In this document: positions 2,908 through 58,397 of the stretch, in pieces
Position numbering within the stretch: position 1 is the first letter of the stretch
How the letters are laid out: each line of letters opens with the position of its first letter
NCBI GenBank assembly: GCA_024137785.1
Contig: JAHRHZ010000105.1
Span: 6,328,219-6,392,218 of the forward strand
Direction of reading: 5' to 3'
DNA: 64,000 bases
DNA from: Ginglymostoma cirratum
Taxonomy: Eukaryota
Program-made: the position numbers and the translations under genes
Notes under the pieces: model-generated
Database searches by the model: none
Seen by the model: the letters and a program-made list of their open reading frames with translations, nothing else
Told to the model about the DNA's origin: nothing

Positions 2908-3212
2908 AGAAACAAAAATAGAAATTGCTGGAGAAACTCGGCAGGCTTGGCAGCATCAGTGGAGAGAGAAAGAGTTCATCTGAAGAAGGGCCACTAAACC
3001 TGAAGCATTAACTCTGCTTTCTCTCCACAGACGCTGCCAGACCCGTCGAGTTTCTCCAGCAATTTATGATTTAGATTCCTATTTCCAGCATCCCAGGTTC
3101 TTTGCTTTAGTTTACAATTCTGAAGAAGGGTCACTGGACTCGAATTGTTAACTCTGTTTTTCTCTCCACAGGTGCTGCCAGACCTGCTGAGATTCTCCAG
3201 CCAATCCTGTTT
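2908..3212. mobile_element. Old Penelope-derived terminal-repeat cluster: one inverted arm plus two tandem arms, each tandem arm with a degenerate hammerhead core
   Basis: The left arm GAAATTGCTGGAGAAACTCGGCAGG...GAGAGAGAAAGAGTT is the inverse of AACTCTGCTTTCTCTCCACAG...GAGTTTCTCCAGCAATTT. Cores CTGAAGAAGGG start at 2980 and 3120. Confidence 0.75.
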
Positions 3213-3213
3213 T

Positions 3214-3270
3214 TATCTATCTATCTATATCTATCCATCTATCTATCTGTTATCATCAACTTATCTATCA
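3214..3270. repeat. (TCTA)n-type microsatellite
   Basis: TATCTATCTATCTATATCTATCCATCTATCTATCT. Confidence 0.85.
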
Positions 3271-4336
3271 TGTATTTGTCCACCAGTCACTTATCAACCT
3301 ATCACCTGTCTATTCACCGTTTTCACATTGCTGCGGACAAATGGTTATGTCATTAACAGGTTCAGTTAAATATTAAGCCACCCCCAGTCCCGCCGATAAC
3401 TGTCGACTTCTTGTAACCTTCCTGGGTTTGAGTCGGTATAATCATTTTGTGAGACGTTGTTAGATGAGCAGTTCAGTGTTTTTGTTCAACCGTCACAATC
3501 CGTGATGAAATATGAACCCTCTCTGAAAGTAATGTTTTTATTCGAACATTATCGGGAAGAACCTTTTTAACGTAAGACTAGGAACATTAGACGTGTCGGT
3601 CAGGAAGCTGTGCAATATGATATTGAGATAAACAATAAATATCAGGGGCAAATGGACATATTATATTACCCTAAAGAAGCACATTGGAAGCTCTTCATGT
3701 AGAGTTGATTTGGGTATTTTGCAGCTAGCTTTCTGTCAGTGACACTGTGTTCTGGGGGTGGGGGTAACGAGGAAAACCAGATGTGGCTTAGGAATTCGAC
3801 GCTGTTTAAAAAAAGAATTGGGGTGGTGTCGAGACGCTGTAGGCCCTACTGAGGAGAAAAGAAATCTGTTCGAGTGGTGTCAATCCTTCCCACGACAAAC
3901 AGCAAAACCACGTAAGGCCTGGCCGGCGGTGTCAGGTGTTTATAAAGAAAAGAGACCACTGTTTTTGTTAATGCTTGAAGAAAGCTGCCCCCACTGTGTT
4001 TTAGTAACCACTCCGTCCCCTAACCCAGCAACACATACTGGATGGGGAAGTGTTCAGCAATCACAACGAGAAGCTGAAACGTCATGTGATCCAAATAGCA
4101 AAACGCATTAAACTGAACGAAAACATCCATACATTGTCATATCAGGCAATTTATTTCGGGACGGACGTTTCCTTCCGCATAAAGCGAAAACCTTCAGAAA
4201 ACCTAAAACATTCACAAAGGGAATGAGCAGGTGACTTTCCTCTGCTCACCTCCAGCTTGGCTTTTTCTCACTCCGCTGCTTGATTTCCATCGCTGGCTTT
4301 ATACCCCCGCTCTTTCTGTCCGTTTAATCGATGTTG

Positions 4337-4415
4337 GGGTCTAGGCCCGAAACGTCAAGCTTTCCTGCTCCTATGATGCTGCTTGGCCTGCTGTGTTCAT
4401 CCAGCTCTACACCTT
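4337..4415 (+). mobile_element. Penelope-derived mini-element, 5'-truncated at hammerhead stem II
   Basis: GGGGTCTAGGCCCGAAACGTCAAGCTTTCCTGCTCCTATGATGCTGCTTGGCCTGCTGTGTTCATCCAGCTCTACACCTT is nearly identical to the terminus of the Penelope at 18516-18613. Confidence 0.9.
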
Positions 4416-4929
4416 TTAATCAATGTTGTTGTCCGTTTCGGTCACAGACATGTTTTATTCTCTATCCATTCGCCCCTCTGTTTTATCTCTCTTTCTCACT
4501 GTCTCTCAGCTCTAACGCCGCAAACTTTGGGAGTTTAACGCTGTCCACCTCGCTACCACCCTCTCCTTCAAATTCCTTCCACACATGCTACCGGGCCTGC
4601 ATCATTCTCTGTGTTTGTCTCCTCTTGGAACTTACCTCGTCGGTGTCTTTATGTTCTTCGATGCAGCTGTGCAGCGCCTTGGGGTGGCCGATCACGTTGA
4701 AGGCGCTATATGAAGGCAAGTTGTTTCCGAAACATCGGCATCTTTATGTCTGTCTCTTTCCGCAAAAGCATACTCTTGCCTTTTTGATACTTTCTTGTAT
4801 CAGCTTCTTTGGTTGTATCTCTGAATCTATCCGAATCTCTCTCTTCTGGGATTGCTAGATTTGCTTCACTTTCCTTGACCCTGGAACCTAGCATGCACCC
4901 ATTAAAATGCAATCGTTTATTTTATCCGA

Positions 4930-5800: not shown

Positions 5801-6000
5801 TAAATGCAAGATCTTCTAATTTTGCAGTTTGATATTGTGTTAATGTCAGATAATATAATGGAAAATAGTGCATTAATTTAAATGTTCATTCAAATCTCGC
5901 GTCCACTACTTAAAAGTCTTTTTAGACGGACAAAACCTTTAATAACAAACATATTGGCCAGGTTTTAGAAAACCCTCTCGATGCAGCGAAACTATCAGGC

Positions 6001-8060: not shown

Positions 8061-8276
8061 CTGATAAAACCTGTATCAGAGATAGTAGGAACTGCAGATG
8101 CTGGAGAATCTGATATAACAAGGTGTAGAGCTGGATGAACACAGCAGGCCAAGCAGCATCAGAGGAGCAGGAAAGCTAGGGTCTAGGCCCGAAACGTCAG
8201 CTTTCCTGCTCCTCTGATGGTGTTTGGCCTGCTGTGTTCATCCAGCTCTACACCTTGTTATCTCTGATAAAACCTG
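8061..8276. mobile_element. Penelope-derived hairpin mini-element with 13-bp TSD
   Basis: TSD CTGATAAAACCTG at 8061-8073 and 8264-8276. Inverted arms ~8115-8177 and ~8199-8261 enclose the loop AGGGTCTAGGCCCGAAACGTC. Confidence 0.95.
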
Positions 8277-8435: not shown

Positions 8436-8531
8436 TCCGACGAAGAGTCATCTCGATTCGAAACATTTGCTTGCTCTCTCTCCATGGATGCTGCCGGACC
8501 CGCTGTGATCTCCAGCATTTGTTGTTTTCAG
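8436..8531 (+). mobile_element. Older Penelope-derived terminal fragment with degenerate hammerhead core
   Basis: CCGACGAAGAGTCATCTCGATTCGAAACATT...CTCTCTCCATGGATGCTGCCGGACCCGCTG...CTCCAGCATTTGTTGTTTTCAG. Confidence 0.7.
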
Positions 8532-15261: not shown

Positions 15262-15935
15262 AGATAGGAACAGGAATAGGCCATTCAGCCCCTCGAGCCT
15301 GTTCCGCCATTAACGAGTTCTTGTGGTCGAATTCCTTTGGCCCTATCTTTTAATACCATTCCCCGAACAAAAGAAAATCAATCTCAGATTTGAAATTAAC
15401 AACTGATCCAGCATCCACTGCAGTTTGTGGAAGAGAGCCTTTGCTGTAGAAGCACTTCCTAACATCTCCCAGAATGGTTTGACCCTCATTCACAAACTGT
15501 ACCCCGGTTCTAGAATCCTCAACCAGTGGAAATAGTTTATCCTTATCTATCCTGTCTTTTCCTGTTGATATCTGGAAGACTTTGATCAAATCACTCCATA
15601 ACCTTCTAAATTCTCGAGAAAACAGGCCTAGAAGAAGGGTCCCGACCCGAAACGTCAACTTTCCTGCTCCTCTGATGCTGCCTGGCCTGTTGTGTTCCTC
15701 CAGCTCCACACTTTGTTACCTCTGACTCCAGCATCTGCAGTTCTTACTATCTCTAATTTGTATAATCTCTTTTTATATCTTAACGTCTGAAATCCAGGTC
15801 TCATTCCAGTAAATCTGTAAACCGTCCAAATCCATAGTTCCTTTCTAAAGTATAGAGCCCGGATCTGCTCACAGCATTCCAAGTGGGGTCCAAACAAGTT
15901 TTTGTTTAACCCGCGCCATAACTTCTGCAGCCTGT
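15262..15935 (-). mobile_element. CR1 LINE 3' fragment interrupted by a Penelope mini-element
   Basis: Minus-strand peptides PHLECCEQI..YFRKE and FRRLWSDLIKVFQI...DKDKLFPLV (CR1 ORF2 C-terminus); tail GGCCATTCAGCCCCTCGAGCCTG. Confidence 0.85.
15631..15754 (+). mobile_element. Penelope-derived mini-element nested in CR1
   Basis: GAAGAAGGGTCCCGACCCGAAACGTCAACTTTCCTGCTCC...CCAGCATCTGCAGTTCTTACTATCTCTA. Confidence 0.9.
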
Positions 15936-16018: not shown

Positions 16019-17429
16019 GATGGCGTCTATTAAAGTCTTAGGAAGTGAAACATGCTGCTCGGGGACAAATTGAATTTTCTTGCAAATATTGCGATATTCA
16101 AGTTGCAATATTTTGCAATATTTTTAACAATTTTAGGAATAAAGTATATTTTGGGGAAAATAAACGTGTAAACAGAGGTGGAGTGGGATTGTTTGTTTGA
16201 CTTCATTAGGTCCATTTGTTTTACTTTTAATTTGAGTGAACTGCATTATTGTGGCTGAAACACCCACTGATCAGTATTAGAATTCCCGAATACAAATATC
16301 CTGGGAGCTGGAGTCTGCAGCACAGTCGGAGTTGATGTTTTGTTAAAAGGCCATCGACCTAAAAAAAAACCTGGTTCTCTTTCCAAACATGCTGCCCGAT
16401 CTGCTGAGCATTTTTATTGGCATCACCTGAGATTCCCAGCCTCCCGCAGCATTTTGCACTGGCTGTGTACTGCCCCAGTCTCACTGTGCCGAGGGAATGT
16501 GACACTCTTGCCCCTGCGGTGATAAAATTCCGGGAGTGATGCTGGGTTGTTCTCTCTTTTCCGGAACGTCTCCATGGATCTGAAACTCAGCTCGAATTAT
16601 CGAGACACTGGGTATGGAATCGTCTCGTGTATTCACTCATCCCGGTCAAGCGAACCCCAAAGGAGTAATAAAATGATTTTGGGGCGTCTGATATCAGGGA
16701 CCGATGGCGTCTCGATTAACTGGCACCGGGGTTTGACATCCATTGTTCTTTAAGGACATCCTGTTATCTGACCCAAGTCAGGTATCCCATTGTAACGTCT
16801 GTTTATTATTCTGCAGGATGCAATGTTTCTGGCCTTCACTCACTCATTTGCATTACAAACGGTACCTCTCATTCCTGGTTTGAAACATGCATTTTTCTCA
16901 TTAAGACCCACTTTCAGTAGATAAGAGGGTCTCCCTGCCATTTGTTTTCACAGTTAATCCCGTTGACGAGTATTCGCCAAACAGTAAATCACAGGGGTGT
17001 GGGAACGCTATTAGAGAAAAGGAGGTTTTTTTTGCTTTAATAAATGCTGGTGACAACTCTGCTCTAACCGAGCACTGATATTCCCGTGTGTCGAGTGTAG
17101 CAAAAAAGAGACCGAGCAATGTTGCATTCTCAGGTTCGTACAGGCTCTCCCAAGTTGGAAGATCCTTTGGAGCTGTGTAATTCCGAGCAATTTTTATCTC
17201 CATTCCAGATTTTCATCCTTTATGGTTCTATTTTTACCTCTTGCTTGGTCCTTTTTCCTCTCAAAACTAACTTGGCAAATCCCTACCCTTATTGAATCCT
17301 AAACCTAGGCCTGGGAACTTAACATATCAACAAGTCACCCGTCGATCAAGTGGGCTTGATATATGTTATGTATAGGATAAATATATATACTATATACAGT
17401 CCTTTATACTGTATGCAGTATATGGACAT

Positions 17430-18515: not shown

Positions 18516-19352
18516 TTAGAGATAACAAGGCGTGAGGCTGGATGAACACAGCAGGCCAAGCAGCATCATAGGAGCAGGAAAACTTGACATTTCGGGCCTA
18601 GACCCTTCATCAGAAATGGGGGAGGGGAAGAGGGTTCTGAAATAAATAGGGAGAGAGGGGGAGGTGGATATAGGATGGATAGAGGAGAGGATAGGTGGAG
18701 AGGAGGCAGACAAGTCGAAGAGGCGGGGATGGAGCCAGTAAAGGTGAGTGTAGGTTGGGAGGTAGGGAGGAGATAGGTCAGTCCAGGGAGGACGGACAGG
18801 TCAAGGGGGCGGGATGATGTTAGTAGATGGGAGATGGGGGTGGGGCTTGAGGTGGGAGGTGGGGATAGGTGAGAGGAAAAACAGGTTAGGGAGGTGGAGA
18901 TGAGCTGAGCTGGTTTTGGGATGCGGTTGGGGGAGGGGAGATTTTGAAGCTTGTGAAATCCATATTGATGCCATTGGGCTGCAGGGTTCCCAGGCTGAAT
19001 ATGATTTGCTTTTCCTGCAGCCTTTGGGTGGCATCACTGTGGCATTGCAGGAGGCCCAGGATGGACATGTCATCTGAGGAATGGGAGGGGGAGTTGAAAT
19101 GGTTCGCGACTGGGAGGTGCAGTTGTTTGTTGCGAACTGAGCGCAGGTGTTCTGCAAAGCGGTCCCCAAGCCTCCGCTTGGTTTCCCCGATGTAGAGGAA
19201 GCCACAATGGGTACAGCGGATGCAGTATACCACATTGGTCTTGGGGCCTGGAATTGGGGTGAGGGAGGAGGTGTGGGGGCAGGTGTAGCACTTCCTGCGG
19301 TTGCAGGGAAAAGTGCCGGGTGTGGTGGGGCTGGAGGGGAGTGTGGTGCGGA
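18516..19352 (-). mobile_element. Penelope-like retroelement (Neptune-type) 3' portion: Cys linker, GIY-YIG endonuclease, 3' UTR and hammerhead-containing terminus
   Basis: PGTFPCNRRKCYTCP linker near 19280-19320, the GIY-YIG ORF at 18886-19233, a pyrimidine-rich UTR, then CTGATGAAGGGTCTAGGCCCGAAATGTC at 18613-18586. The element is 5'-truncated and has no RT. Confidence 0.93.
18886..19233 (-). pseudogene. GIY-YIG endonuclease domain of Penelope ORF (fragment)
   Basis: VYCIRCTHCGFLYIGETKRRLGDRFAEHLRSV...VANHFN..SH....ILGL...E.QIIFSLGTLQPNGIN. Confidence 0.92.
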
Positions 19353-19455: not shown

Positions 19456-19574
19456 ATCACAAATGAATTTTTCTGAAGAAGGATCCAGACCCGAAACATC
19501 AGCTTTCCTGCTCCTCTGATGCTGCTGGGCTGCTGTGTTCATCCAGCTTTACACCTTGTTATCACAAATGAATT
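19456..19574 (+). mobile_element. Penelope-derived mini-element with 14-bp TSD
   Basis: TSD ATCACAAATGAATT at 19456-19469 and 19561-19574; core CTGAAGAAGGATCCAGACCCGAAACATC at 19473-19500. Confidence 0.92.
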
Positions 19575-31002: not shown

Positions 31003-31155
31003 ACTTTGTATCAGAGATAAAAGGTACTGCAGATGCTGGAGAATCCGAGATAACAAGCATGGGGCTGGATGAACACAGCAGGTCAAGCAGCATCATAAGA
31101 GCAGGAAAACTTGACGTTTCGGGCCTAAACCCTTCATCAGAAAACTTTGTATCAG
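31003..31155 (-). mobile_element. Young Penelope-derived mini-element with intact hammerhead core and 12-bp TSD, nested in CR1 ORF2
   Basis: TSD ACTTTGTATCAG at 31003-31014 and 31144-31155. Confidence 0.95.
31109..31143 (-). ncRNA. Minimal type-I hammerhead ribozyme motif (predicted dimeric)
   Basis: Minus strand reads UUU-CUGAUGA-A-GGGU(UUAG)GCCC-GAAAC-GUC-AAG. Activity is untested. Confidence 0.7.
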
Positions 31156-33592: not shown

Positions 33593-33941
33593 TTTTTATT
33601 CATTAATGGGATGAGGGTGTTACTGGCCAGGCAGCATTTATTGCCCATCCCTAATTGCCCAGCTGGCAGTTCAGAGTCAAGCTCATTGCTGTGGGTCTGG
33701 AGTCATATGTAAGCCAGACCAGATAAGAATGGCAGTTTCCCTCCCTAAAGGACGTAAGTGAACCGGATGGGCTTTTCTGACAATCAGCAATGGGTACATG
33801 GTCATCATTAGACTCTTAATTCCAGATATTTTATTGAATCCACCATCTGCCATGGCTGGATTCAAACCCCAGTCCCTAGAACATTATCTGGTTCTCTGCA
33901 TTAATAGTCCAGCAATAACAGTTCTAGGCTATCACCACCCC
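33593..33941 (-). mobile_element. tRNA-headed SINE (family B) sharing its 3' tail with LINE family B
   Basis: GCATTTATTGCCCATCCCTAATTGCCC tail and GGATTCAAACCC B box; homologous to 45948-46310. Confidence 0.85.
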
Positions 33942-33999
33942 GAATTCTGTTTCAGTATCTCCACCAGGAAGTGCCTCAGGCCTCGTTGTCATATTCTGA

Positions 34000-36380
34000 G
34001 TGCTATATACATTTTTGTTTTGCAAAAATATATTTTATTAATAAGAAATCTTTACGTACATACACATGTACTAAAGCAGTTCTGTACAGTCTTTGCATAT
34101 TGAGAAAAATAAATATTGACATTCCCTGCAGTTGCAAAATCCAAAGGCATTTGTTATTTATGAAGGACACTATTTACATATATTTGAGGCAATGAAAGGG
34201 TCTGACAACTGAATGGGCCCCCATTGTACTTTGGTGAGAAGACCTTAGATGGTGGTCTTTCCCCACCGTGTCTTGGCGGCAGCTATCCCATGCTTTAGTG
34301 CATCCCTCAACGCGTAGTCCTGGGCCTGCAACACTCGGTTGAATGCTTGCGCTGGAAGACCAACAAGTTTCAAGCAGAACAAAGAGTGTCTTTCACCAAG
34401 ATGATGGTTCTCCAAGTGCAGTCTCGGTGTGCATCCTGGGAAAAAGAGCACAGAGCTCTGTGTCATGGAGCTGCTTGGGACAAACCTCGACAAAAACTAC
34501 TGCATCTCTCTCCAGACTTTCTTTGTAAGGGCACATTCCAGAAAGAGATGTGACAGTCTCAACTTTCCTGCAGCTGCTTCGATGGCAGTATGTGGTGGTG
34601 GAGAGAGTGCGGCATAAATGGAAGAACTGATGGGAAGTACCCTTCTCACCACTAGCCAAGCAATGTCTTGGTGCTTGTTGGAAAGGGAAGGAAACTGCCA
34701 TCCTTACCTGGTCTGGCTTACATGTGACTCCAGACCCACGTCAATGTGGTTGACCCTGAACTACTGTCTGGGAAATTAGGGGTGCTTGTTGGAAAGTTTT
34801 GGTGATGAGGCATTCTGTCAAATTACTTTGACAGTCTGCTTAGGGAACCATGCGACAAGATCTACCCTCTCCTTTTCCTGTAGGGTCTCAAGGAGGTTAC
34901 AAGATGACCACTTCCTGATGGACTTGTGATTTCTTCACAAATTTTTCCACGAGAGGTAGATGATAAGGAATGGCTCAACTACTTGCAACATTCCACAGCA
35001 ATGAGGCCAAACCCATCCCTTGTAATACAGGGGACAGGTAGAACCTCAGTGTGCAGTGACACTTGGTGTTTGTGTAGCGAGGATCTATGCACAGCTTGAT
35101 GCAGCCACACAGGGTGAGGTGATGGACTAATGGTATGATCACTGGATTGTTAATCCAGAGACCCAAGTAACTTTCTACACTCCAGGTTTAAATCCTGCCA
35201 TGATAGATGATGGGGTTTGAATTCAAATAAACAAAAATCTGGAATTAAGAGTCTAATGATGATCATGAAACCATTGCCCATTTTCAGGAAAAACCCACCT
35301 AGTTCACTAATGTCGTTTGGTGAAGGAAATCTGCCATCCTTACCAGGTCTGGCTGACATGTGACTCCAGAACTACAGCCATGTGGTTGGCTCTTAACTAT
35401 CCTCTGGGCAATTAGGGATAGGCAATAAATGCTGGCCGAGCCAGTGACGCCATCATTCCACAAATGAATTTAAATAAAACACAACAGAGGCCATCAGGAT
35501 GAGGGCAGTATAGGGTATGTCTTTCCCACCCTCTCTTATCCAGAGCTTTGTACATTGTGTCTCTGCAGACATTGTCCATCTTAGACCTCCAGCTGAAGTG
35601 GAAGATGACTCGGGTGACTGCAGTGGCACAGGATCAGGGAGTGGGCTAGAACTGCACCAAATGCAGCAACACTGAGAGTACCTCACACCTGATGACCAGG
35701 TTTTTTTCTCGTGATGGAGAGGGAGTAGAGCTCCAACCTGCACAGTTTCTGCCTCACCTTGGTGATTCACTCCTCCCAAATTTTAGCATCAATCCCTCTG
35801 AATCATATTCCCAGCACCTTCAGATAGTCTGACCCAATGGAGAAGGTGATAAAGGGTCAGTCAGGCCAATTCCCAAAGAACGTGGTCTCACTCTTGCCTC
35901 GATTTACCTTGGCACCCAAGGCCAGTACAAACTGGTTGCAGATGCTCATGGGTCTGTGCACTGACAGCAGATCCAAACAGAAAACAGCAGTGCCATCCAA
36001 GCACAGGGAGGCTTTGACCTGCAGGCCTCTGCCACCTGGAATAGTTGCCCCTCTCAGGCTTGCATCCTTCCTGATGGATTCAGCAAAAGGCTTGATACAA
36101 CACACAAACAAGGCCGGAGAGAGTGTGCAGCCCTGCCTGACTCTGGATCTAATTGGGAAACTTTCTGATTCCCACCCATTGATTGAGGCTGAACTAATTA
36201 AGGTGTTGTAGAGCAGTCTGATCCAATTGGGGATCTCATCCCAAATGCCTATTTCCTCATGTTGGTGTGCGAGATCCTATCCAAGGCCTTCTCCTGGTCC
36301 AGACAAACAGAGGCAGATATTCCACCCCAACCCCAAGCTGCACGTGGGTGATGGCATCCCTGAGGAGTGCCAGAAATCGT
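34000..36380 (-). mobile_element. Tx1/L1-clade LINE ORF2 relic, interrupted by SINEs
   Basis: Minus-strand peptides LDQEKALDRISH (RT), IRSRVRQGCTLSPALFVCCIKPFAESIRKD, ALGAKVNRGKSE and SRFVPSSSMTQSSVLF; T-rich/poly(A)-like end near 34015. Confidence 0.85.
35114..35478 (+). mobile_element. tRNA-headed SINE (family B), near full length
   Basis: GAGGTGATGGACTAATGGTATGATCACTGGA...GTTCACTAATGTC...GGGCAATTAGGGATAGGCAATAAATGCTGGCC. Confidence 0.85.
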
Positions 36381-39632: not shown

Positions 39633-39728
39633 CCATTTCTGATGAAGGGTTTAGGCCCGAAACGTCAAGTTTTCCTGCTCCTATGATGCTGCTTGACCTG
39701 CTGTGTTCATCCAGCCCCATGCTTGTTA
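39633..39728 (+). mobile_element. Young Penelope terminus abutting the gap
   Basis: CCATTTCTGATGAAGGGTTTAGGCCCGAAACGTCAAGTTTTCCTGCTCC...CCCCATGCTTGTTA. Confidence 0.93.
39635..39670 (+). ncRNA. Minimal type-I hammerhead ribozyme motif (predicted dimeric)
   Basis: AUUU-CUGAUGA-A-GGGU(UUAG)GCCC-GAAAC-GUC-AAGU; stem I AUUU/AAGU; predicted cleavage after C39666. Activity is untested. Confidence 0.7.
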
Positions 39729-39784: not shown

Positions 39785-41110
39785 TGTGGGAGGTATAGTT
39801 AGTAAATTTGCAGATGACGCCAAAGTTGGTGATGCAGTGGACAGTTAAGAAGGCTATCTCAGAGTAGACTGGTAGACTCATTAGCAATGTTAGATCACAT
39901 GGGATCCAGGGAGAGCTAGTGAATTTGATGCAAAATTGACTTGAAGGTAGGAGACAGAGTGTTGGTAGAGGGTTGCTTTTCAGACTGGAGGCCTGTGACC
40001 AGTGTGACCAAGGATCAGTGCTGGGTCCACTGCTTTTTGTCATTTATAGGATTGATTTGGATGTGAATATAGGAGGTATGGTTAATAAGTTTGCAGGTCA
40101 CACCAAAATTGGCAGTGCACTGGACAGTGAAGAAGTTGCTCTCAGAGTACAATGGGACTTTGATCAGATGGGCCAATGGGCCAAGGTGTGGCAGATGGAG
40201 TTTAATCTAGATAAATATGAGATGTTGCACATTGGTAAAGTAAATCAGGGCAAGGCTTATACACCTAACGTTAAGGCCCTGGGGAATGTTGCCGAACAGA
40301 GACCTAAGGGGCAGGTGCATCGTGGAGTTGGAGGTAGACAGAGAGATGAAAAAGGCACTTGTCATGCTGGCCTTCATTGGTCAGTGCATCGAGTATCGGA
40401 GTTCAGATGTCATATTGCGACTGTACAGAACACTGGTGAAGCCACTTTTAGAATACTGTGTTTAATTCTGGTCTCCCTGATATAAGAAAGGCCTTGTTAA
40501 ACTTGAAAGGGTTTAGAAAAGAATTACAAAGACTGGAGGGTTTGAGTTATAGGGAGGGGCTGAATAGGCTGGGGCATTCTTCCCTGGAGCATCAGAGGCT
40601 AAGGGGTGACCTTATAAAATCATGAGGGGCATGGATATAGTGAATAGCCAAGGTCTTTTTCCTAGGGTAGGAGAGTCCAAACCTAGAGGCCGTAAGTTTA
40701 ATGTGAGAAGGGAATGATTTAAAAGAGGCCCAGAGGGGCAAATTTTTCACGCATACGTTGGTGTGTGTATGGAATGAGCTGCCAGAGGAAGTGGTGGAGG
40801 CTGGTACAATTACGTCATTTAAAAGACATCTGGATGCGTAAATGAATAGGAAGGGTTTAGAGGGATATGGGCCAACTGCTGGCAAATGGGACTAGATCAG
40901 TTTAGGATATCAAATCGGCGTGGATGAGTTGGACCAAAGAGTCTGTTTCTGTCAGAGATAATAGGAACTGCAGATGCTGGAGAATCTGAGATAACAAGGT
41001 GTGGAGCTGGATGAACACAGCAGGCCAAGCAGCATCATAGGAGCAGGAAAGCTTGACGTTTCGGGCCTAGATCTGTTTCTGTGTTGTATAACTCTATGAT
41101 TATGACTCTT
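39785..41110 (+). mobile_element. CR1/HER1 LINE 3' fragment
   Basis: QGSVLGPLLFVIY..DLDVNIGGMVNKFA..TKIG and QWAKVWQMEFNLDK; tail ACTCTATGATTATGACTCT. A duplicated RT piece lies at 39785-39865. Confidence 0.92.
40942..41082 (-). mobile_element. Penelope-derived mini-element with 11-bp TSD in the CR1 3' tail
   Basis: TSD TCTGTTTCTGT at 40942-40952 and 41072-41082; truncated within hammerhead stem II. Confidence 0.93.
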
Positions 41111-43061: not shown

Positions 43062-43259
43062 ATCACAGAGCAAAAATATGTATTAGAGATAAAAGGTACT
43101 GCAGATGCTGGAGAATCCGAGATAACAAGCATGGGGCTGGATGAACACAGCAGGTCAAGCAGGGTTTAGGCCCGAAACGTCAAGTTTTCCTGCTCCTATG
43201 ATGCTGCTTGACCTGCTGTGTTCATCCAGCCCCATGCTTGTTATCACAGAGCAAAAATA
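43062..43259. mobile_element. Young Penelope-derived perfect hairpin mini-element with 17-bp TSD
   Basis: TSD ATCACAGAGCAAAAATA at 43062-43078 and 43243-43259; perfect 42-bp inverted arms at 43121-43162 and 43204-43245. Confidence 0.96.
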
Positions 43260-43899: not shown

Positions 43900-45400
43900 T
43901 TTTTATTTGTTCACAGGTCATGGGTGTCACTGGCTAGTCTTTTTTTTTGTCCATTCTTGATTGCCCTTGAAAAGGTGATTGTGAGCTGCTCTCTTGAACT
44001 GCTGCAGTCGTTAAGGTGTAGTGACACCCACAGTGCTGTTAGAAAGGGAGTTCTAGGTTTTCAGTGACAGTGAAGGGACGATGACATAGTTCCAAGTTAG
44101 GATGGTGAGAGGCTTGGAAATGAACTTGAAGGTAGTGGTGTTCCCTTCTATATGGTCCTCTCATGTTTCTAGATGGTAGGAGCTGAAAGAGTCTTGGTGA
44201 GTTACTGGAGTACATCTTGTAAGTGGTTTAATCTGCTGCGACAGTGCATTCTTGGTGGTGGGAAAGAATGTTGGAGATATTTGGGGTAGTAATCAGGCAG
44301 GATGTTTTATTCTGGATGAATGTTATTCAAGCTGCACTCATCCAGGTCACTGGCTGTAATACCATCACAGTCCTGACTTGTGTCTTGTAGATAGTGGATA
44401 GGCTCTGGGGAGTCAGGAGGTGTGTTATTTGCCTCAGAGTTCCTAGCCTCTGAACTCCTCTTGCAGCCATGTTATTTATATGGAAGTAAAGTACTGTGGA
44501 TGCTGGAGATTTGAAATAAAAACAAAACATGCAGAATATTTATATCTTTGGTCCAGTTCAGTTTCTGATCAATAGTAATCCCCAGGATGTGAGGAATTCT
44601 GCGCATCTAGGACAGTGCCTTGAGGTCGTGCACAACTGAAGTGATGTCTTGGGGCTGAGATCATTGACATCCAACAACCACAACTATTTTCCTATGTGCC
44701 AGGTCTGACTCCAGCCAGCAAAAATCTCTCGCTGATTCCCACTGACTCCAATTCTTCGAGAACCTCTAGATATCACACATGGTCATATGTTACCTTGATG
44801 TCAAGGGCAATCACTCACACCTCTGGAGGTGAACTGTTTTGTCCAGACAGTCATACAGCACAGAAACAGACACTTCATTCTAACTCATCCATACCAACCA
44901 TGTTTCCCAGTGAAAAAAATTCAAAGCTTATCCAGCCTCTCCTTAGAACTCAAACCCTCCAGTCCCAGTAACATTCTTTTCTGCATCTTCTCCAATTTAA
45001 TAATATCTTTCCTATTGTAGGTGGCCCTGAGCTGTAATGATGTCAGGTGCTGAGTGGCCCTGCAGAATCTTTACTAAATATCAGTGAGCAGGTTATTGTA
45101 AGCATGTGATAAAACAGTTAATGCCACTTTCTGGGGGTCTGAACATGAGATTGAGATGGATCATTCACCCGGCACTTCTAACTAAATATGGATGCAAATG
45201 CTTCATCCTTGCCTTTTGCCCTGATGTGCTGCATTCCTGAGGATGAAGCTATTTATAGAGACTCCCCTTGTCAGTTCTTCAATTCTTCACCACCATTCCC
45301 AGTTGGATGTGGCTGGACCACAATCCTGAGATCGCATCGATCGATTGTAGTCTATGTATGTTAATCAGCTTATATATTTGTAATATCTATCCTTATTGGT
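43900..45400 (-). mobile_element. CR1/L2-clade LINE (family B), fragmented
   Basis: Minus-strand peptide QRLGTLRQITHLLTPQSLSTIYKTQVRTVM; 3' tail near 43910-43980; interrupted by small insertions. Confidence 0.75.
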
Positions 45401-47152: not shown

Positions 47153-48642
47153 CAGTCAATAAATATAAAGCTATACCATTTAAGCTGTGGAATTCACTCA
47201 AAACTGTGCTTTTGTTTGTGAGTGCCAATATCTCCATATATGGTTCTATAGGTTTTCTTGTGATCCACCTTTGTACTATATTAAATGCAATTTGTCGCCT
47301 TTATTGAATTAAAACAGAAAATTTTGGAAGTATTCTCCTGAAATGTCACTGATCTGAAAGATTAGCTCAATTTCTCTCTCCACAGACCTTTTTTCCAGAA
47401 TTTCCTTTTTTATCTTTCCAGCACCTGCACTGTTTTATTGCTGTTCAGTCTCTTTCTTTACTCCTTTACATCTTTCTTAACATCTACTCCATTGATCAAG
47501 TTATTGGTAATAATATAGAAAATCTTTATGTAGCTCATGTCAAGTATATTCGGATAATACTCCGATGAAGTGCATTCTGTTATTAAAGATGCTATGAAAA
47601 TCTAAGTTGCTACAGCTATTTATGGCAAAACCAGCAGACTATAACTTAGACGCAGCCATTGATTAAACTACACAACCCTTTGTCAGAACACACCTTGAGT
47701 GTATGTCTATTGTTGGCCATGAGAACTCAAGGCAGCTATTCATAAATAGAAATTCATCACGAGCTCTGTGCTGAAACCTAATTCCAGAGACTGAAATATG
47801 AAAAAGCCTCAAGGAATGTATGTTTTTCTATCTTTCCAAAAGAAATGGCAGAGTGGCTCCTGTATAGTTTAGTGTTGACCAATATGTGAGCACCATGTGA
47901 CTAATTGGGAACACAAATCCGGCTAATTAGATCTGTGATTAATAAATAAAAGATGCCTAACAAGCACCATCATGTGACAAACCACATGCACGTGAACTGT
48001 GACCTTTTAGTCTGTTCACTGGCAGAATGGTGAGACAAAGACCAAGTTTACAAGTGTTTGTTTTACTATAGCGTGGATGCATTACTTCCTTGTTGACTGA
48101 TTTTTGGCAGATCTTTGTTATATAAATAAATATGTGAAGTACATTTGCTTGTGAGTACGTATAAAAGTGAGATCTGTTAAAATTAATACATGTGGCTGAA
48201 AGTATGCTCTCACCACACACCTATGAGACACCTTGAGAAGTTTATTACAGATGTTCAACAAATGCAACTTGTTGTATTACGCATTTTACTAAAGATCTTG
48301 TACACCGATTGGGGCAGCTGGGGGAAATAACTGGCCCATTGTGGGTGGCTGTTTTCCTTGCTATTTTTTTCTGCTTCCCCTTGCAGCCTAATTGCTACAA
48401 ATCCGTCTGCCTCCCACAATGTCTGGTAATTCAAATTTCTCCTAATAGTCTGAGTGGGAGAGTCTATGTCCAAGCTTTATGGTGGTCTTAGAACCAAATA
48501 ACCAGAACTGAATAGTAGAACATGCTTGAAGGGCTGAATGGTCAAACGTGCTCCTAATATTTTTAAAATTTAGCCCAATGTTTCTCAGAAGCAGATATTT
48601 CAAAGCCACAGAATTTTCTCTAATCAATGATATAGATAAATT

Positions 48643-51691: not shown

Positions 51692-51773
51692 TCAGAGATA
51701 AAAGGTACAGCAGATGCTGGACAATCCGAGATAACAAGCATGGGGCTGGATGAACACAGCAGGTCAAGCAGCA
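51692..51773 (-). mobile_element. Young Penelope terminus running into the gap
   Basis: TCAGAGATAAAAGGTACAGCAGATGCTGGACAATCCGAGATAACAAGCATGGGGCTGGATGAACACAGCAGGTCAAGCAGCA; same subfamily as the copies at 31003 and 43062. Confidence 0.93.
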
Positions 51774-52173: not shown

Positions 52174-52499
52174 GGGCTGGATAAACATTTAAATGATCTC
52201 TCGCCTATACAACAAGGAAATGATTGATTGCTTTGTGATAGCCCAACTTATTTGCAATATTTGCACATAAAAATCTGTGTATTGTTCCTCCAATTTTCAA
52301 GTTACTAAAGTGGGTTGATTTCAAAGGAGACATCCATTATCAGAATGGTCCCACCATTTCAGATTGGATTCATGACATAATTCCAGAACAGACAGAAATA
52401 CTTTATGTGTGTACGGTTCTTGACATGCCTATTTTTCTCTTTTATTTTAATCCTGTTTGTTTCTTGAAAAAAATCCACATTCTTCCAATTCCCAATTGG

Positions 52500-52735: not shown

Positions 52736-53217
52736 TAAATAAACAAAAAGAAAATGCTTAGCAGGAAAAGTTGGTTGTTCAGAAGAAAGGAGTGCTCCTA
52801 TTAGGAAATTTTGGAACATCCTTCGCATTAATTGAGATGTTTTTGTTCAGCAATTCCCTCCTCAGGACTTATCTGACTGACCAGGGCCCTTCCGACCACC
52901 TGAATTCCTGTTGCTGCCTGATTTTCTTCTGGAATAAAAAACAGAAATTGCCAGAAATGTTCAACATCTCTTGGCAGAGAAACAAAGCTAACATTTCTGA
53001 TCTGTGGCCTTTCACCAGATTTATTTCAGAATTCCAACATCCCTGATATGTGTGTTTTGATTTTCTTCTGGAATTGAACAGGAGTTTAATCCTGAATATC
53101 AACATTGTAGTTTCTGACTCACTTTCCCTGCACATACCAATCCCACTCCAAACTAAATTTAAGGTGATAATCTGTACAAACAAAGTGGAAAGAATTTGCC
53201 CAAGGATGTTGGGAGAT

Positions 53218-53441: not shown

Positions 53442-56400
53442 GAGATATATCTGCTAGTTCCTCAAAGCAAGAATGACACTTGTTCATGGCAATAGAATGC
53501 ACTCAAGCGACTTTAAACCTGGGGAGGCTGTTGTATTCCAGCCGAAATATAGTTCAGGCTGATAAGGAAAGTCTTTTGCTCTTACCATCTGCCTTTGGTG
53601 TAACAGGAAGATTTACAGATCATTAATCACCCACTTTGGACATGAGTTGCTACATTCCCTTAATGGCCATTGAGACTTGAGATGAGACTTGAGCCTATCA
53701 CAGCAACACAAGATCGCTGTTGGGAAATAGAATGGCAAGTGAAACTTGGATTCCTTAGTGGCTGTGTGAGAGTGACTGGATTCAGGTTACTTCTATAGCT
53801 GCAAACTTCAGCAATGCTTTCACTTACTTGGTTTTGAACCAGCATGAATCATTTGGAAGAAGTACACCGCATTGTTGATTTCAGGTTCTCACTGGCATAA
53901 AGAATAGGACTGATATCATTTTCTATAACTCCAAAAGAACTTTGCATTCCTCAAACTCTGGGAAATGGACATCCCCATTTCCATCCTCCTACCTTTTGCA
54001 GCACGTTGATAATCATCTGGACACTAACTGAGCTGAGTCACTCGCAGAAGATGACATTAGCAATTGTCTATATATTGTAGCATGCAAAACAGAGTGGTGT
54101 GGAACAAGCTAAATGGAGCAGACGGGTTAGTTTCTCTCTGTCATTGTTCATGTTTACATTGGTCTTTAAGGATATCTGTAAAACACGGTGTCTGGTCGGG
54201 TTAGCTACAGTGGAACTTAAAAAGAAAAATCACATGCACATGAGAGTCTGTGTATTGCCGGATCTACATTGTTCGAAAATAGCACCTCTTTGAAAAGAGC
54301 AACAGGGACTTGTCTTTGGAGGGTGTCTGTCACTTTAAGGGAAAACAGGCAGCAGCCATCATCCCTCCCTTTTGCCCACTACTCCCTGCCAATTTACATT
54401 GATAACCAGTCAACCTCTCCCTGTCTCCAAAACCTACTCCAGCCCTTCATGTTTCTGAGAAGCCTCAGCTGTGCGGAAGTGCTGAAGATAATGCACATTC
54501 CTAATGATAATGGAGGCCCTATCAGAAAGGATCCCTCTCTCACACAGTGCAGGCTGGTAATTGTCAGATAGCGGGTCAGCTTCTGAGCTCATCATGTGCA
54601 GAATGCTAAATAGCAAAAAGAGATCCAATGACTAGGAAAAGGAAAAGAAACTGGCTCATTTATTGCCTGATTCCTCCAATAAAGTGTCCAAATCAATACA
54701 ACAAATTAACACTTGTTTTCCCTGTCTTTTAAATAATGGAAAGTTGTTGTTGCTACCACAAATATTTGAGGTGACTCACGTAAAGGCAAAACTAGATAAA
54801 CAAATAAGCAGAAGTAATAGAAAGATAATAATAAAGTGAGGCAGACTGACTTGTCTAAACCATTAACATCAGTATGGACTCGTTGGCCTGTTTCTGTGCT
54901 GTAAGTATCAAGACTATGTAAAGTAATAGAATTTCCAGCTGCAGCACCCCTGAAGGCACCATGTTTTACTCAGGTACAGAACTATGCAGAACTTAGATGT
55001 AGGCAATTCAGCCCATTGAGTTTATGCAAACATTTATGTCACGGATGTGCCTTCTCCCATGTCAGCTTTCCTCGCACAATCAGCATTAACTTCTACTCTT
55101 TTCTCCCTCATGTATGTATTCAGCTTCGCCAGTTTCAATATCTCACTGAAATGGCAACACTTCAAGTGTGTGCCTCGACGGAATGGTGAGAATTTGCCCA
55201 GATTTTTATTCTTCTGCGCTGAGATTCTGTGCTATAACATGAGGCAGTCATGTCCTTCCCGATTGAAAAGATGATGCACAAGGCCAAATAGTTGCACATT
55301 TAGTTCATTTTCTGGTTACTGCTGAAGGGCAGATGCCTCTTCTATGGTGGCAATGGAAGGTATTTGTCAATCAGTGAGCTTTGTCATACTGTTGATAAAA
55401 TATAGCCAGGAATGACTCATATTAAGAAAATAACCAACTGTGCCTTTAGCTGACTAGGCCCTAGAATTCCACTACGAAACACTGGTCTGCCTTTTTACCT
55501 CTCCGTCCCTGCCTTTAAGAGGCTCCTTAAAACTTATCTCATTGACCAATCTTTTGTTCATCTGTCCTGCTATATCTCTTTGAAGCTCAGAGTCTGATTC
55601 TACTCCTATGAAGTATCTTAAAGGAAAAGGAGAAGAGTCTCACATTTATGTAATTCACAACTGCTAGACTTCTCAAAGCACTTTCCACGCAGTGCCTTGC
55701 TTTTTGAGGTAGTCACCTGTTATAAGACAGGAAATACGGCACCCAGTTTGTACACAGCAAGCTCCCACAAACAGCATTGTGGTAATAATCAGATAACTAG
55801 TTTTTTTTGGAAAGTAAGAACAGAGGATGCTGGAAATATTCTGCAGGTCTAGCAACATCTATGGAGAGAAAATCAGGGGGCTGAATTTTACCAGATATCA
55901 ACTAAGTATCATTTTCAAAAGCTTTTTAGAGAGTTTGTCTCCCTGGGGCTAAGCACGTTTTCTCATAGGCAATTATCCCTAATGCACCTCATTAATGATG
56001 TACCATTATGATGCCCTACTCATCCAATGCTTGTTCGTTTCTCTCACTCATTGTAGGTGGAAGCACTCCTCACTGCTGGGATATCCCAAGACACCTGGCA
56101 CCAGCACCACTTTTGAACCCAGTCATGCACCTGGTCAAGTGTTGGCAGTCTGGAGTCACCATGAATACTGTGGGACAGCATCCACAAACTAATACGCCTC
56201 ATGACACAGAGCTAACTTGGATGATACTTCCTTCCAGATATACTGCACATTCCTGCACCTATCGCAATTTAAGCACTGAGCCACATAACTTAGCTGTCCC
56301 TAGCCACATCCCATCTTACTCCAAACCCTTTCTCCAATGCCCACTATAGTCCAGTATCTTATCATTGTTTAATGTGAGACCATTACATACAGGTCACACT

Positions 56401-56619
56401 CATTCTTATTTGCCAACACTAAAAACCAACATAAATCAAACAAATAGAAGTTGCATTTGCCTCTCAGAACAGAAACAGACTGTTTGCCTGTTGAGCACCT
56501 GTGATTTTACAGTCAATGAACAATCACAGCTCCCAGCTCTCCACTGGAGTCCTGTCAATTGAGTCCTGCCTGGTTGGCAGCAGGGGCACTCTATCATTGC
56601 AGAAGGAGATATTGCTCCC

Positions 56620-57860
56620 ACTCAGTGTTCTCATCCTCCTTCTCACAACACTACTCCCACTCTCCCAGGTCGTCATGCTCCATCACATTGCTGCTTTGCC
56701 TGCTCCAGTTGTACAGAGCACAGCGTGCTCGGATGATGTGGCACACCTCTGTCCAGACTTTACCGTGAGACTTCTAGATCCTGCTCAAAGCAGTGAGGTC
56801 TTATCTTCAGGAGACCTGTCATCTGTTCTTGTCAAAGTTTGGGCTACATTTTATCTGAACTCAGTCAGGGGACTGTTCAATGGAGTCATCAGCCATGGTC
56901 ACAGTGGGTAGCCTTTGCCTCCCAGTAACCATCCTGGCAAGGTATCTGGACTCGCAACATTCTCAAGGATATGGACATCATGGCAGCTCCCAGGGTACAT
57001 GGCACGCATTTCTCGGAAGCAGAACCAGCGGTCACAGATAACTTATACCTTGATGGAATGGAATCATTTCTATTGTTTAACTCAGCTGTGTTATGAAATA
57101 GGTCTCTCAATACAATGTGTTTACAGTGTATTACAGCCTGGGGGAAGCCCGCTTTGTTGCTGAATCTAACTGCTCAGGCTGTAGCCCAGACTCATCTTAG
57201 GGCAATGAGATTGGGGTGGCATAACAGTTAGTACCGCTGCCTCCCAGGTTCAATTCTAACCTTGGGGTGAATGTCTTGTGTGGAGTTTGCATGTTCTCCC
57301 TGCTCCCTCCCACCGGATGCTCCACTTTCCTTTCACAGTCCAAAAAACCTGGTCAAATTCATTCTTATTCACTAACACCAAAAACCAACAGAGATCGAAC
57401 AAATAGAAACTGCATTTGCAGATTAGGTGGCTTGGCCATATTAAAATAAAATTGTCGTAACATCCAAGGATGTGCAGGTTAGATGGATTACCCATAGTAA
57501 AAACCCTGTGGAGGGTTATAGGCATGGTGTAGAGGGATGGGGCTGGATAGGATGTTCTTCAGACAGCTGGTGCAGACTTGATGGGCTGATTGGCATCTTT
57601 CTGCACCGTGGGGATTCTATGAGATGAAGTGCTCTGTTTGGGAACAAATGGCATCTGTAACATCCTTGATTATATTTGTGGGTGGACAACTGAGTGATCC
57701 CACACACACTCTCAGTGGATTTTTGGAAGCAGTCAGTTGCATAAAAGTTCAATGTACCTGTCACATTGATGGCCACTGGAATAGAATGGTCACCCACTCC
57801 TTCAGGGCACAGGTCCTGAACCAGCATCTGACAAACTTCTATGATAGTATCCCAGGGCAT
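56620..57860 (-). pseudogene. Harbinger (HARBI1-like, DDE) transposase pseudogene, split by a SINE
   Basis: IPVAINVTGTLNFYATDCFQ...CGITQ (57650-57860), then AGFP, YPGSCHDVHIL, GWLLGGKGYPL*PWLMTPL, GLLKIR and VCHIIRARCALYN across frameshifts. Confidence 0.85.
57212..57625 (+). mobile_element. HE1/V-SINE, degraded, inserted in the Harbinger transposase
   Basis: GTGTGGAGTTTGCATGTTCTCCC V-domain; tail TCTGCACCGTGGGGATTCTATGA; possible TSD ATGAGAT (57205-57211, 57619-57625). Confidence 0.8.
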
Positions 57861-58239
57861 CCCGGGTCTGTGTTCCTCACTCTACTGGAAGAAATGGCAT
57901 TGAGGCTGAAACACTCTGGTCCTCCTGTCCCACCTGTATATAATCAGCATTGACCTTCTCATATGGAGGTTATTTGACATTCGCTGGAGGCTGCTGCTAC
58001 TCCTGGGCTTGCTGGTGCATTAGTTGCTCCTCCATTTCCGTGTTGTCATTGCATCACAGCAACAGTGTCAGTTATCCCTCCAGTGGCTGGATCCACCATT
58101 TACACTCAGTGAACCCGTGTCAGGTACATTGGGAACAGAATGGGTCCTTAGTAATGCGAGCAGTCAGCATTCATGTCACTCACAAAACATACAGCTAAGC
58201 TATTCCTCCATACAGTGGCACAAGGAGTACTCCAACAAG

Positions 58240-58397
58240 GAGGGCCATGGAATGAGAAGCGAATGGTCCCGACCCGAAAAGTCAACTTTCCTGTTCCCCT
58301 GATGCTGCTTGGCCTGCTGTGTTCCTCCAGGTCACACACTGTGTTAACTCTGACTCCAGCATCTGCAGTTCTTACTATCTCTGAGGACCATGGAATG
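58240..58397 (+). mobile_element. Penelope-derived mini-element with ~15-bp TSD
   Basis: GAGGGCCATGGAATG (58240-58254) and GAGGACCATGGAATG (58383-58397) flank the body GGTCCCGACCCGAAAAGTCAAC...TACTATCTCTGA. Confidence 0.88.

Follow-up and report, generated by a model that had tools for sequence, protein, structure and literature searches.

Dispersed Penelope-derived units with a minimal hammerhead motif in Ginglymostoma cirratum are probably short cDNA insertions of a pseudo-LTR end

Results

The window analysed here is a stretch of 64,000 nucleotides (64 kb) from Ginglymostoma cirratum. It contains one long copy of a Penelope-like element (PLE), a 5'-truncated insertion of 834 nt on the minus strand (18519..19352), which consists of the C-terminus of a GIY-YIG protein, a C/T-rich pseudo-LTR (pLTR) and a minimal hammerhead ribozyme motif (min-HHR). 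An earlier note on this DNA had placed a GIY-YIG Penelope at 18516-19352: the domain is indeed present (PF01541, E = 1e-6, above the cut-off), and the limits are now 18519-19352. The element may belong to the Penelope/Poseidon clade. Its min-HHR (18582..18617, minus strand) comprises a putative 4-bp stem I, CUGAUGA-A, stem II and GAAAUGUC, with a C-to-T change in the palindrome. The copy is flanked by a 10-bp target-site duplication (TSD) with one mismatch (18509-18518/19353-19362), whose score is within the null range but which lies at the edges of homology.

The protein encoded by the long copy is 85% identical to a whale shark RT-EN protein and 77% identical to one from the zebra shark. The endonuclease remnant (18889..19352, minus strand) lacks 13 residues that are present in the whale shark relative; in the latter, RT motifs are found upstream of GIY-YIG, and the RT is absent from the copy in the window. 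The zebra shark protein reads through the motif of the unit downstream of its GIY-YIG. Protein searches did not connect the unit to the start of an ORF: the translated unit only retrieved a whale shark exonised fragment (E = 0.22), and the search with the N-terminal piece gave a whale shark fragment which stops short of the unit. A match between the translated unit and a tandem-repeat protein was discarded as uninformative, since it is driven by the repeats and its score is summed over six weak stretches. No full-length copy, with a pLTR end leading into the ORF, is present in the 64-kb window.

The repeat unit of about 90–140 nt is found at all 13 positions listed in the earlier note (blastn, printed context, and nhmmer with E from 1e-16 to 1e-27; the best nhmmer match in the reversed-window control has E = 0.41). 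Position 18586 among them corresponds to the GIY-YIG element's own 3' end. Two further units are present at 51773 and 53019, both on the minus strand, and nhmmer detects degraded copies at 16341, 44532, 47339 and 55875. The 15 units in 64 kb amount to one per 4.3 kb, in agreement with the announced density of roughly one copy per 5 kb. Short units outnumber longer copies 12 to 1. No tandem array of the unit was found in the window, and the units have no tRNA head: there is no tRNA gene, and none of them matches tRNA, 5S or 7SL in Rfam. The counts over 14 copies given below leave out 51773, the inverted arms and the four degraded copies.

The units do not form a single family, contrary to what had been proposed: the members of the young group are 77–100% identical to one another and only 46–67% identical to the older copies. 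The four youngest copies have a 1-nt deletion in common, and three of them are 99–100% identical. In the tree, the ORF-bearing copy, the only one of its kind there, is sister to the youngest short units (96/90 support; 92–94% identity); two of the young copies in this tree run into N.

Two units have both boxes of the hammerhead core in perfect form. That at 31015..31143 (minus strand) has the tail, starts at -3 (5' ends are numbered relative to C3), is inserted in LINE RT sequence and is flanked by a 12-bp TSD (31003-31014/31144-31155), while that at 39633..39728 (plus strand) has no tail and matches the long copy to at least -6 before it runs into N. The unit at 19470..19560 (plus strand) has CUGAAGA, a palindrome reading ACAU and a mismatch in stem II; we rejected the idea that it is the inverted pLTR of the long copy, to which it is 87% identical, since it has its own 14-bp TSD. 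The 5' end coincides with stem II in 4337..4414 (plus strand; +9, no CUGANGA, TSD of 14 bp with one mismatch) and lies inside it in 40953..41071 (minus strand; +12, with tail, TSD of 11 bp). The units at 15628..15754 and 58255..58382 (both on the plus strand and with tail) belong to the same subfamily; the former has a damaged or clipped 5' box and an intact GAAACGUC, the latter an unrecognisable 5' box, the palindrome AAGU and a 15-bp TSD with one mismatch.

Older subfamilies are represented by a direct arm at 2977..3108 (plus strand; with tail, 5' end at -3) and, directly behind it, by a unit at 3118..3216 (plus strand) which is 75% identical to it. The GAAA box is decayed in both. This pair was considered as a functional tandem dimer and rejected, because both cores are decayed. 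The unit at 8436..8530 (plus strand) belongs to a third, older subfamily, with a longer loop II. Beyond the earlier note, 51692..51773 (minus strand) is the 3' part, with tail, of a youngest-subfamily unit whose 5' part is in N, and 52935..53057 (minus strand) is an old insertion made of an inverted arm reduced to the tail and a direct unit starting at -1, enclosed by a 16-bp TSD. The degraded copies are 16341..16442 (plus strand, nhmmer E = 1.9e-6), 47339..47431 (plus strand, E = 1.6e-6), 55812..55875 (minus strand, a 3' part with no readable ribozyme, E = 8.3e-9) and 44485..44532 (minus strand, a fragment of the 3' end and tail, E = 8.9e-4).

Ends of the insertions

The short units had been said to have their own TSDs of 11–17 bp. 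This is so for 7 of the 12 noted short units (4337, 8178, 19473, 31143, 41071, 43161 and 58260, with scores of 11–18), not for 2980, 3120, 8437 and 15631, and the 5' end of 39639 is in N. A score of 11 or more was reached in only 2 of 300 random site pairs. With the old copy at 53019, eight short insertions have a TSD. The TSDs are richer in AT than the window (66% versus 58%). The units are derived from Penelope, as had been claimed, they lack the ORF, and each of those flanked by a TSD is an insertion of its own.

Two classes of 3' ends are observed, 57–67 nt (9 of 14 copies) and 98–102 nt (5 of 14) after H17. They are about 35 nt apart, which matches the 30–40 bp tail of Penelope, mapped to two RT start sites (Frangieh et al. 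2024, PMC11167929). The long copy ends at the first of them, without tail.

Inverted arms of the Penelope type are found in three to five insertions; nhmmer detects those ending at 2976, 8177 and 43162. At 8178, the inverted arm (8074..8177, minus strand), made of the tail and the unit, ends precisely on the base that follows the predicted cleavage site, shows no microhomology at the join and is followed by a direct arm (8178..8263, plus strand) that starts at +8 and has neither CUGANGA nor tail; a 13-bp TSD (8061-8073/8264-8276) encloses both arms. At 43161, the inverted arm (43079..43162, minus strand), made of the tail and the 3' part of the unit, ends well downstream of the cleavage site with 2 nt of microhomology, the direct arm (43161..43242, plus strand) starts at +8 to +10 and lacks CUGANGA, and a 17-bp TSD (from 43062 and from 43243) encloses both. 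The earlier note did not mention the additional arms inside these two TSDs. The third arm, of an older subfamily (2909..2976, minus strand), ends at the predicted cleavage site or within 3 nt of it. An arm just upstream of the 47339 copy is weakly supported (alignment score 22). Two of the four well-read arms (five including the degraded one) have their inner end at most 3 nt from the predicted cleavage site, exactly so for 8177 and with an ambiguity of 0–3 nt for 2976 (nominal P 0.0006–0.008, post hoc). The arms of the two-arm inserts overlap by 47–70 nt of common sequence, which is not expected from twin priming on a single template without strand displacement. Fold-back of one cDNA was rejected as the origin of the 8178 and 43161 palindromes, since the inverted arm has tail sequence that is missing in the direct arm.

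Among the 13 readable direct 5' ends (39639 is left out), 12 lie between -3 and +12, the remaining one being that of the 834-nt copy. The next 48 nt contain the start of only one degraded fragment (binomial 6e-7 under constant truncation). This 15-nt stretch lies just downstream of a TATA-like TATTTAT (18642..18648, minus strand) and of an Inr-like CCATTTC (18613..18619, minus strand), a putative promoter element and a putative transcription start, respectively; the Inr consensus is YYANWYY. The Inr-like A (18617), 31 nt downstream of the TATA-like motif and 4 nt upstream of C3, adjoins the group of short-unit 5' ends that lies farthest upstream. In the whole window, 13 of 128,000 positions have a pair of this kind, and the zebra shark protein that reads through has the same SPSLPIY residues at the TATA-like position. 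The pair may act as a promoter, a post hoc reading of the sequence of one copy. Drosophila Penelope has a TATA-less internal promoter; if the same applied here, the short unit could carry its promoter along, which argues against the TATA/Inr reading.

The hammerhead motif

The loop-less GAAAC-GUH hammerhead with a 4-nt palindrome is not new: it is the min-HHR of Cervera and de la Pena (2014, PMC4209133), so that the "ultra-minimal" ribozyme of the earlier note is not an architecture of its own. The description itself was accurate, since there is no loop between GAAAC and GUC and this type I minimal hammerhead cannot close stem III in cis. In the part of Fig. S3 of PMC4209133 considered here, many rows read GAAA C G U C or C G U U, and the published consensus has an extra nucleotide after A9, as in the present units, where this nucleotide is unpaired and stem II is closed by G10.1-C11.1. 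That the ribozyme is obligately dimeric would follow from its geometry and from the literature; like the known min-HHR, it should have a weak cleavage activity that depends on dimerisation or on the help of a protein.

The term "ribozyme-bearing" applies to few copies as they now stand. Both boxes are perfect in only 2 of 14 (31140 and 39639), 5 of the 14 copies with a readable ribozyme region have no recognisable CUGANGA (4337, 8178, 41071, 43161 and 58260), and the ACGU palindrome is intact in 7 and decayed in the rest, with a CpG-type change in 6 of the 7 altered palindromes. At the level of the family, the boxes CUGANGA and GAAA-N-N-UH flank stem II as in a min-HHR, which most copies taken singly do not show. 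The predicted excess conservation of the core between subfamilies was observed (0.855 for 11 core positions versus 0.632 for the downstream part, from the only 9 copies that reach the 5' box); 12 of 5000 random sets of 11 columns are as high, and one of 52 contiguous downstream windows is higher (0.875).

Pairing in stem II is found in 90.6% of 53 cells in register, versus at most 69.8% when the register is slid; its covariation is not above that of shuffles (372/500). The putative stem I has 4 bp, including one G-U, and is readable only in 18613 and 39639. ViennaRNA favours other folds than the hammerhead, for the monomer and the dimer alike: the fold with the 4-bp stem I is at -3.5 versus -9.3 kcal/mol for the MFE, and the double-hammerhead dimer at -5.3 versus -28.8 kcal/mol for a stem II duplex, the latter on a slightly longer stretch. 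Self-complementarity of loop II is confined to the youngest subfamilies, so this duplex was dismissed as a sign of dimerisation across the family. Nor was the hammerhead fold recovered by RNAalifold. A scan against Rfam gave 14 matches at E up to 5, with no hammerhead family among them; min-HHRs were originally defined with a relaxed descriptor, not with Rfam (Cervera and de la Pena 2014, PMC4209133). The miRNA matches in Rfam are just the inverted arms.

Discussion

We argue that the units are probably short target-primed cDNA insertions of the pLTR end, left by several successive EN-bearing Penelope-like lineages, rather than a separate element. Transcription, driven by the TATA-like/Inr-like pair, would start in the pLTR some 4 nt before the hammerhead core. 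The RT-GIY-YIG protein would cut AT-rich DNA, and the RT would start from either of two internal sites separated by about 35 nt, 60–100 nt downstream of the cleavage site; both activities have been seen in vitro with the anole element. When the priming site is near the 5' end of the RNA, either a full-length mRNA or an RNA from a truncated copy that has kept its promoter, the cDNA would run off after about 80–130 nt, and some copies would be clipped back to the base of stem II. Integration would then give the 11–17 bp TSD and, when both DNA strands prime, the inverted two-arm insert, both of which are seen. The upstream TATA-like motif is missing from the inserts, whose palindromes decay mostly by CpG-type changes; selection on the ribozyme would have acted in the source elements, not in the inserted copies. 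In vitro, pLTR-ORF junction RNA gives short internally primed products with no need for ribozyme cleavage, and both DNA strands are cut and extended in the reaction (Frangieh et al. 2024, PMC11167929); inverted 5' arms and tails are standard features of PLEs (Arkhipova et al. 2013, PMC3846280; Craig et al. 2021, PMC8557442).

We favour this origin because of the two 3' end classes, the clustered 5' ends with the TATA/Inr-like pair at their edge, the nested ORF-bearing copy, the inverted arms, the AT-rich TSDs, the CpG-type changes in the palindrome and the read-through in the zebra shark. Against it, two subfamilies have 1- and 2-nt deletions in common downstream of a conserved ATG; if this ATG is the start of the ORF, their sources were non-autonomous. 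A non-autonomous family would likewise produce the 12 to 1 excess of short units.

The earlier note saw in the units such a non-autonomous family. It may be that short masters are transcribed alone and moved in trans by Penelope proteins, like SINEs: short units account for 12 of 13 readable 5' ends, the 1-nt deletion common to the four youngest copies and the near-identity of three of them point the same way, and the literature describes putatively non-autonomous PLE derivatives, trans-mobilisation by pLTRs, and retrozymes proposed as derivatives of PLEs. We nevertheless consider a SINE-like family unlikely. The 5' ends vary even inside the youngest subfamily (-3, at least -6 and +8), one member of which matches the long copy upstream of the proposed start, and the ORF-bearing copy, although there is only one, is nested among the short units; there is neither a tRNA head nor a tandem array. 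Varied 5' ends (-3 to +12), two 3' ends and kinship with an ORF-bearing copy are what by-products of ordinary Penelope lineages would give. The fixed 5' end and Pol III head of a SINE are not seen; an internal Pol II promoter may be present.

Ordinary 5' truncation could also be invoked, if long Penelope RNAs are primed at the 3' pLTR and the RT stalls at a structured or dimerised hammerhead. PLE copies are known to be heavily 5'-truncated, min-HHRs are mostly single motifs "probably related to truncated PLEs" (Cervera and de la Pena 2014, PMC4209133), and the 834-nt copy and 39639 show that templates containing upstream sequence are in use. What makes stalling doubtful, and to us a poor candidate, is where the RT stopped: an end on the 5' side of stem II or upstream of the core means that the structure has already been passed, and none of the 13 readable direct 5' ends is at the 3' foot of stem II (+13 to +28) or between -7 and -738. 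Formation after insertion, by deletion or recombination of longer copies, has been put forward in the literature for rotifer solo pLTRs without TSDs, and 4 of the 12 noted short units have no detectable TSD. These are among the more diverged copies, and the eight short insertions that have TSDs directly at both edges exclude such an origin for themselves; the same eight lack the upstream C/T-rich part of the pLTR, which recombination would keep. We regard post-insertion formation as very improbable for the set as a whole.

Within the preferred reading, that of short target-primed insertions, the two-arm inserts could be genomic fossils of a reaction between two RNAs, a proposal that is speculative and that we would not bet on. 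A dimer of the Penelope protein would hold two RNAs whose min-HHRs are paired via ACGU, one would cut the other, and each DNA strand would prime on one RNA; one arm would end at the cleavage site of the cut RNA, and the other would pass the uncut ribozyme to the start of the transcript. If true, this would be evidence that the min-HHR of a PLE cleaves in vivo, evidence that the anole RNA-seq data did not provide (Frangieh et al. 2024, PMC11167929).

Most of this is ordinary, since a known and mostly broken ribozyme, in a lineage where Penelope elements are abundant (as they are in the whale shark), changes little as it was first stated; the two end patterns are the exception. Its value lies in the junctions, which could help show how Penelope elements copy themselves. 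If the sharp 5' edge holds genome-wide, internal priming followed by run-off would account for most of the dispersed single min-HHRs, with no need for random truncation or a new class of SINEs. If inverted arms pile up at the cleavage site, cutting by min-HHRs in vivo becomes testable from a genome alone. A shark genome would hold enough copies for solid statistics, given a density near one per 4 kb.

Comparison with known systems

Like metazoan non-LTR retrozymes (Cervera and de la Pena 2020, PMC7229834; Li et al. 2026, bioRxiv 10.64898/2026.07.22.740005), which have been reported in one chondrichthyan, the units are non-coding, have a type I HHR, are related to the pLTRs of PLEs and occur as dispersed monomers. 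Retrozymes are, however, defined by tandem repeats, a complete HHR in each unit and a circular RNA, whereas the present units are not HHR-to-HHR monomers, are not arrayed and have individual TSDs; the only adjacent pair, 2980 and 3120, is the diverged one with two decayed GAAA boxes.

The resemblance to the min-HHRs of PMC4209133 extends to the type I core without loop 3, the palindromic 15.2-16.2 positions, the extra nucleotide after A9, G10.1-C11.1, the short putative stem I, the location in the pLTR and the occurrence as mostly dispersed single motifs, sometimes two nearby on opposite strands. No shark appears among the rows of Fig. S3 and the entries of Table S1 considered here, and the short stem II (4–5 bp) and weak 4-bp stem I with its G-U pair are particular to the present units.

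In Poseidon_Ac (PAc) from Anolis carolinensis (Frangieh et al. 2024, PMC11167929), too, the HHR lies close to the end of the pLTR, an optional tail is delimited by two RT start sites located downstream of the HHR, the targets are AT-rich, both strands are cut and the uncleaved ribozyme is kept in the copies. The ORF of PAc starts at stem II and its RT sites are in an AC-rich stem-loop, whereas the present units have TATCTC-like ends; RNA ends at the cleavage site are missing from the PAc RNA-seq, in contrast to the two inverted arms that end there or beside it here.

Canonical EN+ PLEs (PMC3846280; PMC8557442) share with the present elements the 5' truncation, the inverted 5' arm, the 30–40 bp tail at one end, the solo pLTRs and, in one pLTR, TATA plus Inr-like motifs. 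Their TSDs are of about 8–10 bp, versus 11–17 bp here, and they differ from the present set, in which most inserts are only 80–130 nt long and have tightly clustered 5' ends. Several hallmarks of the group are found here: a C-terminal GIY-YIG in the window, which follows an RT in the whale shark relative, an HHR in the pLTR, an optional tail, inverted 5' arms and a TSD.

Penelope-derived units and their target site duplications

The units are real insertions of the pseudo-LTR (pLTR) end of a Penelope-like element (PLE), with target site duplications (TSDs) at their boundaries; they carry a known minimal hammerhead ribozyme that is mostly broken. It is very likely that they were produced by retroposition of the PLE end. 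A unit was found by blastn and in the printed context at all 13 positions listed in the earlier note. A profile built from these copies matches them at E values from 1e-16 to 1e-27 (nhmmer), the best match in the reversed window being at E 0.41. Extended at its 3' side, the profile detects additional copies in the window at 51773(-) and 53019(-) and four degraded ones, with no match at E up to 1 in the reversed control. The density is one unit per 4.3 kb (15 units counted in the window).

TSDs of 11-17 bp, which had been ascribed to the short units in general, were recovered for seven of the 12 units on the list; 2980, 3120, 8437 and 15631 yielded none, and 39639 runs into N. The TSDs of the seven units score 11-18, while 2 of 300 random site pairs score at least 11. 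An eighth TSD, of 16 bp, surrounds the old copy 53019.

The long, ORF-bearing copy at 18519-19352(-) encodes a GIY-YIG remnant (Pfam), and its protein is 85% and 77% identical to RT-endonuclease proteins of whale shark and zebra shark, respectively, which makes a shark the most probable host; the remnant (18889-19352(-)) lacks 13 residues, in frame, relative to the whale shark protein. An expansion of Penelope elements in sharks is known from the literature. Pieces of the same family, exonised or mis-annotated, occur in several annotated host proteins of sharks and rays; a whale shark HPPD model includes 20 of 22 residues of the tailed unit (the one with an optional extra 3' part). A short unit-like stretch at 52174-52190(-), across an N run from the 51773 copy and in the same orientation, may reflect a tandem insertion or an artefact of the assembly.

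Other repeats are present in the window. Non-LTR RT fragments (Pfam RVT_1) lie at 31321-31815(+) (E 4e-11) and 39940-40482(+) (E 0.045), both putatively CR1-like, and at 35860-36276(-) (E 2e-10); unit 31143 is inserted in non-LTR reverse transcriptase sequence. The three inverted repeat pairs in 33632-35434 (59-111 nt, 83-86% complementarity), unrelated to the unit, are probably opposite-orientation copies of another repeat. Yet another short repeat, with copies in opposite orientations at 57277-57344 and 58704-58770, presumably resembles a fish/shark SINE core.

Conservation and decay of the ribozyme core

The units follow the hammerhead order: CUGANGA, one extra A, a stem II of 4-5 bp, GAAAC and immediately GUH, with a weak stem I of 4 bp. 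Among the 14 copies whose ribozyme region is readable, only two have both boxes perfect and five have an unrecognisable 5' box; ACGU is kept in seven, and a CpG-type change is among the alterations in six of the other seven. The excess conservation of CUGANGA/GAAAC across subfamilies, on which the earlier note made its proposal depend, is present: the 11 core positions score 0.855 against 0.632 for the downstream part, a level matched or exceeded by 12 of 5000 random column sets and exceeded by 1 of 52 contiguous downstream windows. Position N7 is variable. The core was thus kept in the source elements, while it decays in copies once inserted.

Stem II pairs in 90.6% of cells, with covariation not above that of shuffles, and no hammerhead model in Rfam matches the units. 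Energy models prefer non-hammerhead folds for the monomer and the dimer alike, so that spontaneous ribozyme activity may be low. In the youngest subfamilies (e.g. 39647-39658), stem II and its loop form a self-complementary stretch of 12 nt, a predicted dimer interface, which is not conserved in the other subfamilies.

Ends of the units

With core position C3 as the reference, 12 of the 13 5' ends that can be read fall between -3 and +12. They form two groups, one at about -3 to +1 and the other at +8 to +12, where stem II has its base (that of 58260 could belong to either). The remaining end is at -739. In the 48 nt that follow the range, a single degraded fragment begins (binomial 6e-7), old short fragments being harder to detect. 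The long copy has an Inr-like A at -4 and a TATA-like TATTTAT 31 nt upstream of it; this match was noticed post hoc, and such a pairing occurs at 13 of 128,000 positions.

In the simplest reading, transcripts would start at the Inr-like site near -4, and priming at the 5'-proximal RT site would give a cDNA that runs off the end of the RNA. We lean towards this specific mechanism as the origin of the short units. What argues against it is that the Drosophila Penelope promoter is internal and TATA-less. Protein searches found no link between the unit and an ORF start. Two subfamilies have common frameshifting deletions downstream of a conserved ATG; if this ATG is the ORF start, the sources of these two subfamilies would be non-autonomous. 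In a tree of 14 rows, the ORF-bearing copy does not stand apart but pairs as sister with the youngest short units (support 96/90), which with one long copy is a weak test.

The 3' ends fall into two classes, 57-67 nt (9/14) and 98-102 nt (5/14) past core position H17, which correspond to the optional PLE tail of 30-40 bp described in PMC8557442, PMC3846280 and PMC8969392. According to Frangieh et al. 2024 (PMC11167929), this tail is the interval between two internal RT start sites, the main template is uncleaved RNA, the ribozyme cuts only with protein, and cutting and extension take place on both DNA strands. TCCAGC precedes each of the two classes of ends (40953-41020(-) and other tailed copies). 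A GAUGCUG motif, pairable with CAGCAUC in the tail, is predicted to do so in two of four folds, and in a shifted version in a third; the block from GAUGCUG on equals the ribozyme core in conservation and is a candidate RT-binding element.

Inverted arms

At 8178 and at 43161, the direct arm is accompanied by an inverted one, and the TSD surrounds both. The inverted arm 8074-8177 has its end precisely at the first nucleotide past the predicted cleavage site, and its join lacks microhomology; that at 2909-2976 stops at this site or overshoots it by up to 3 nt, according to the reading given to a decayed triplet. Such an end is not seen in the arms at 43162 and 53020, nor in a fifth, weakly supported arm near 47.3 kb. 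The nominal P for arm ends at the cleavage site is 0.0006-0.008, for two events selected post hoc. Three insertions share a stretch of 47-70 nt between their two arms, which requires either a second template or strand displacement. It is established for this ribozyme class that, within a double hammerhead, one RNA is cut by the other. We speculate that a two-arm insert combines one arm from a cut RNA with one from an uncut RNA, which such a dimer would fit. A min-HHR dimer is described in PMC4209133.

Comparison with known elements

Inverted 5' arms such as those seen here are standard for PLEs. No tandem array of the unit was found in the window and no tRNA head, which places the units outside the definition of non-LTR retrozymes given in bioRxiv 2026.07.22.740005 and PMC7229834. 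The tables of that preprint (bioRxiv 2026.07.22.740005) include one chondrichthyan and could list the same family. In the literature searched, where subscription journals are thinly covered, neither the hammerheads of shark PLEs nor a clustering of the 5' ends of such units turned up as the subject of a paper.

The hammerhead form of the units is already published. Cervera and de la Pena 2014 (PMC4209133) describe minimal hammerhead ribozymes (min-HHRs) that have neither helix III nor loop 3, are palindromic at 15.2-16.2, occur by the thousands per genome, mainly as single motifs, and are probably tied to truncated PLEs; cleavage is low for dimers and none for a monomer. Many rows of their alignment have the sequence C G U C or C G U U, and the examined rows include no shark.
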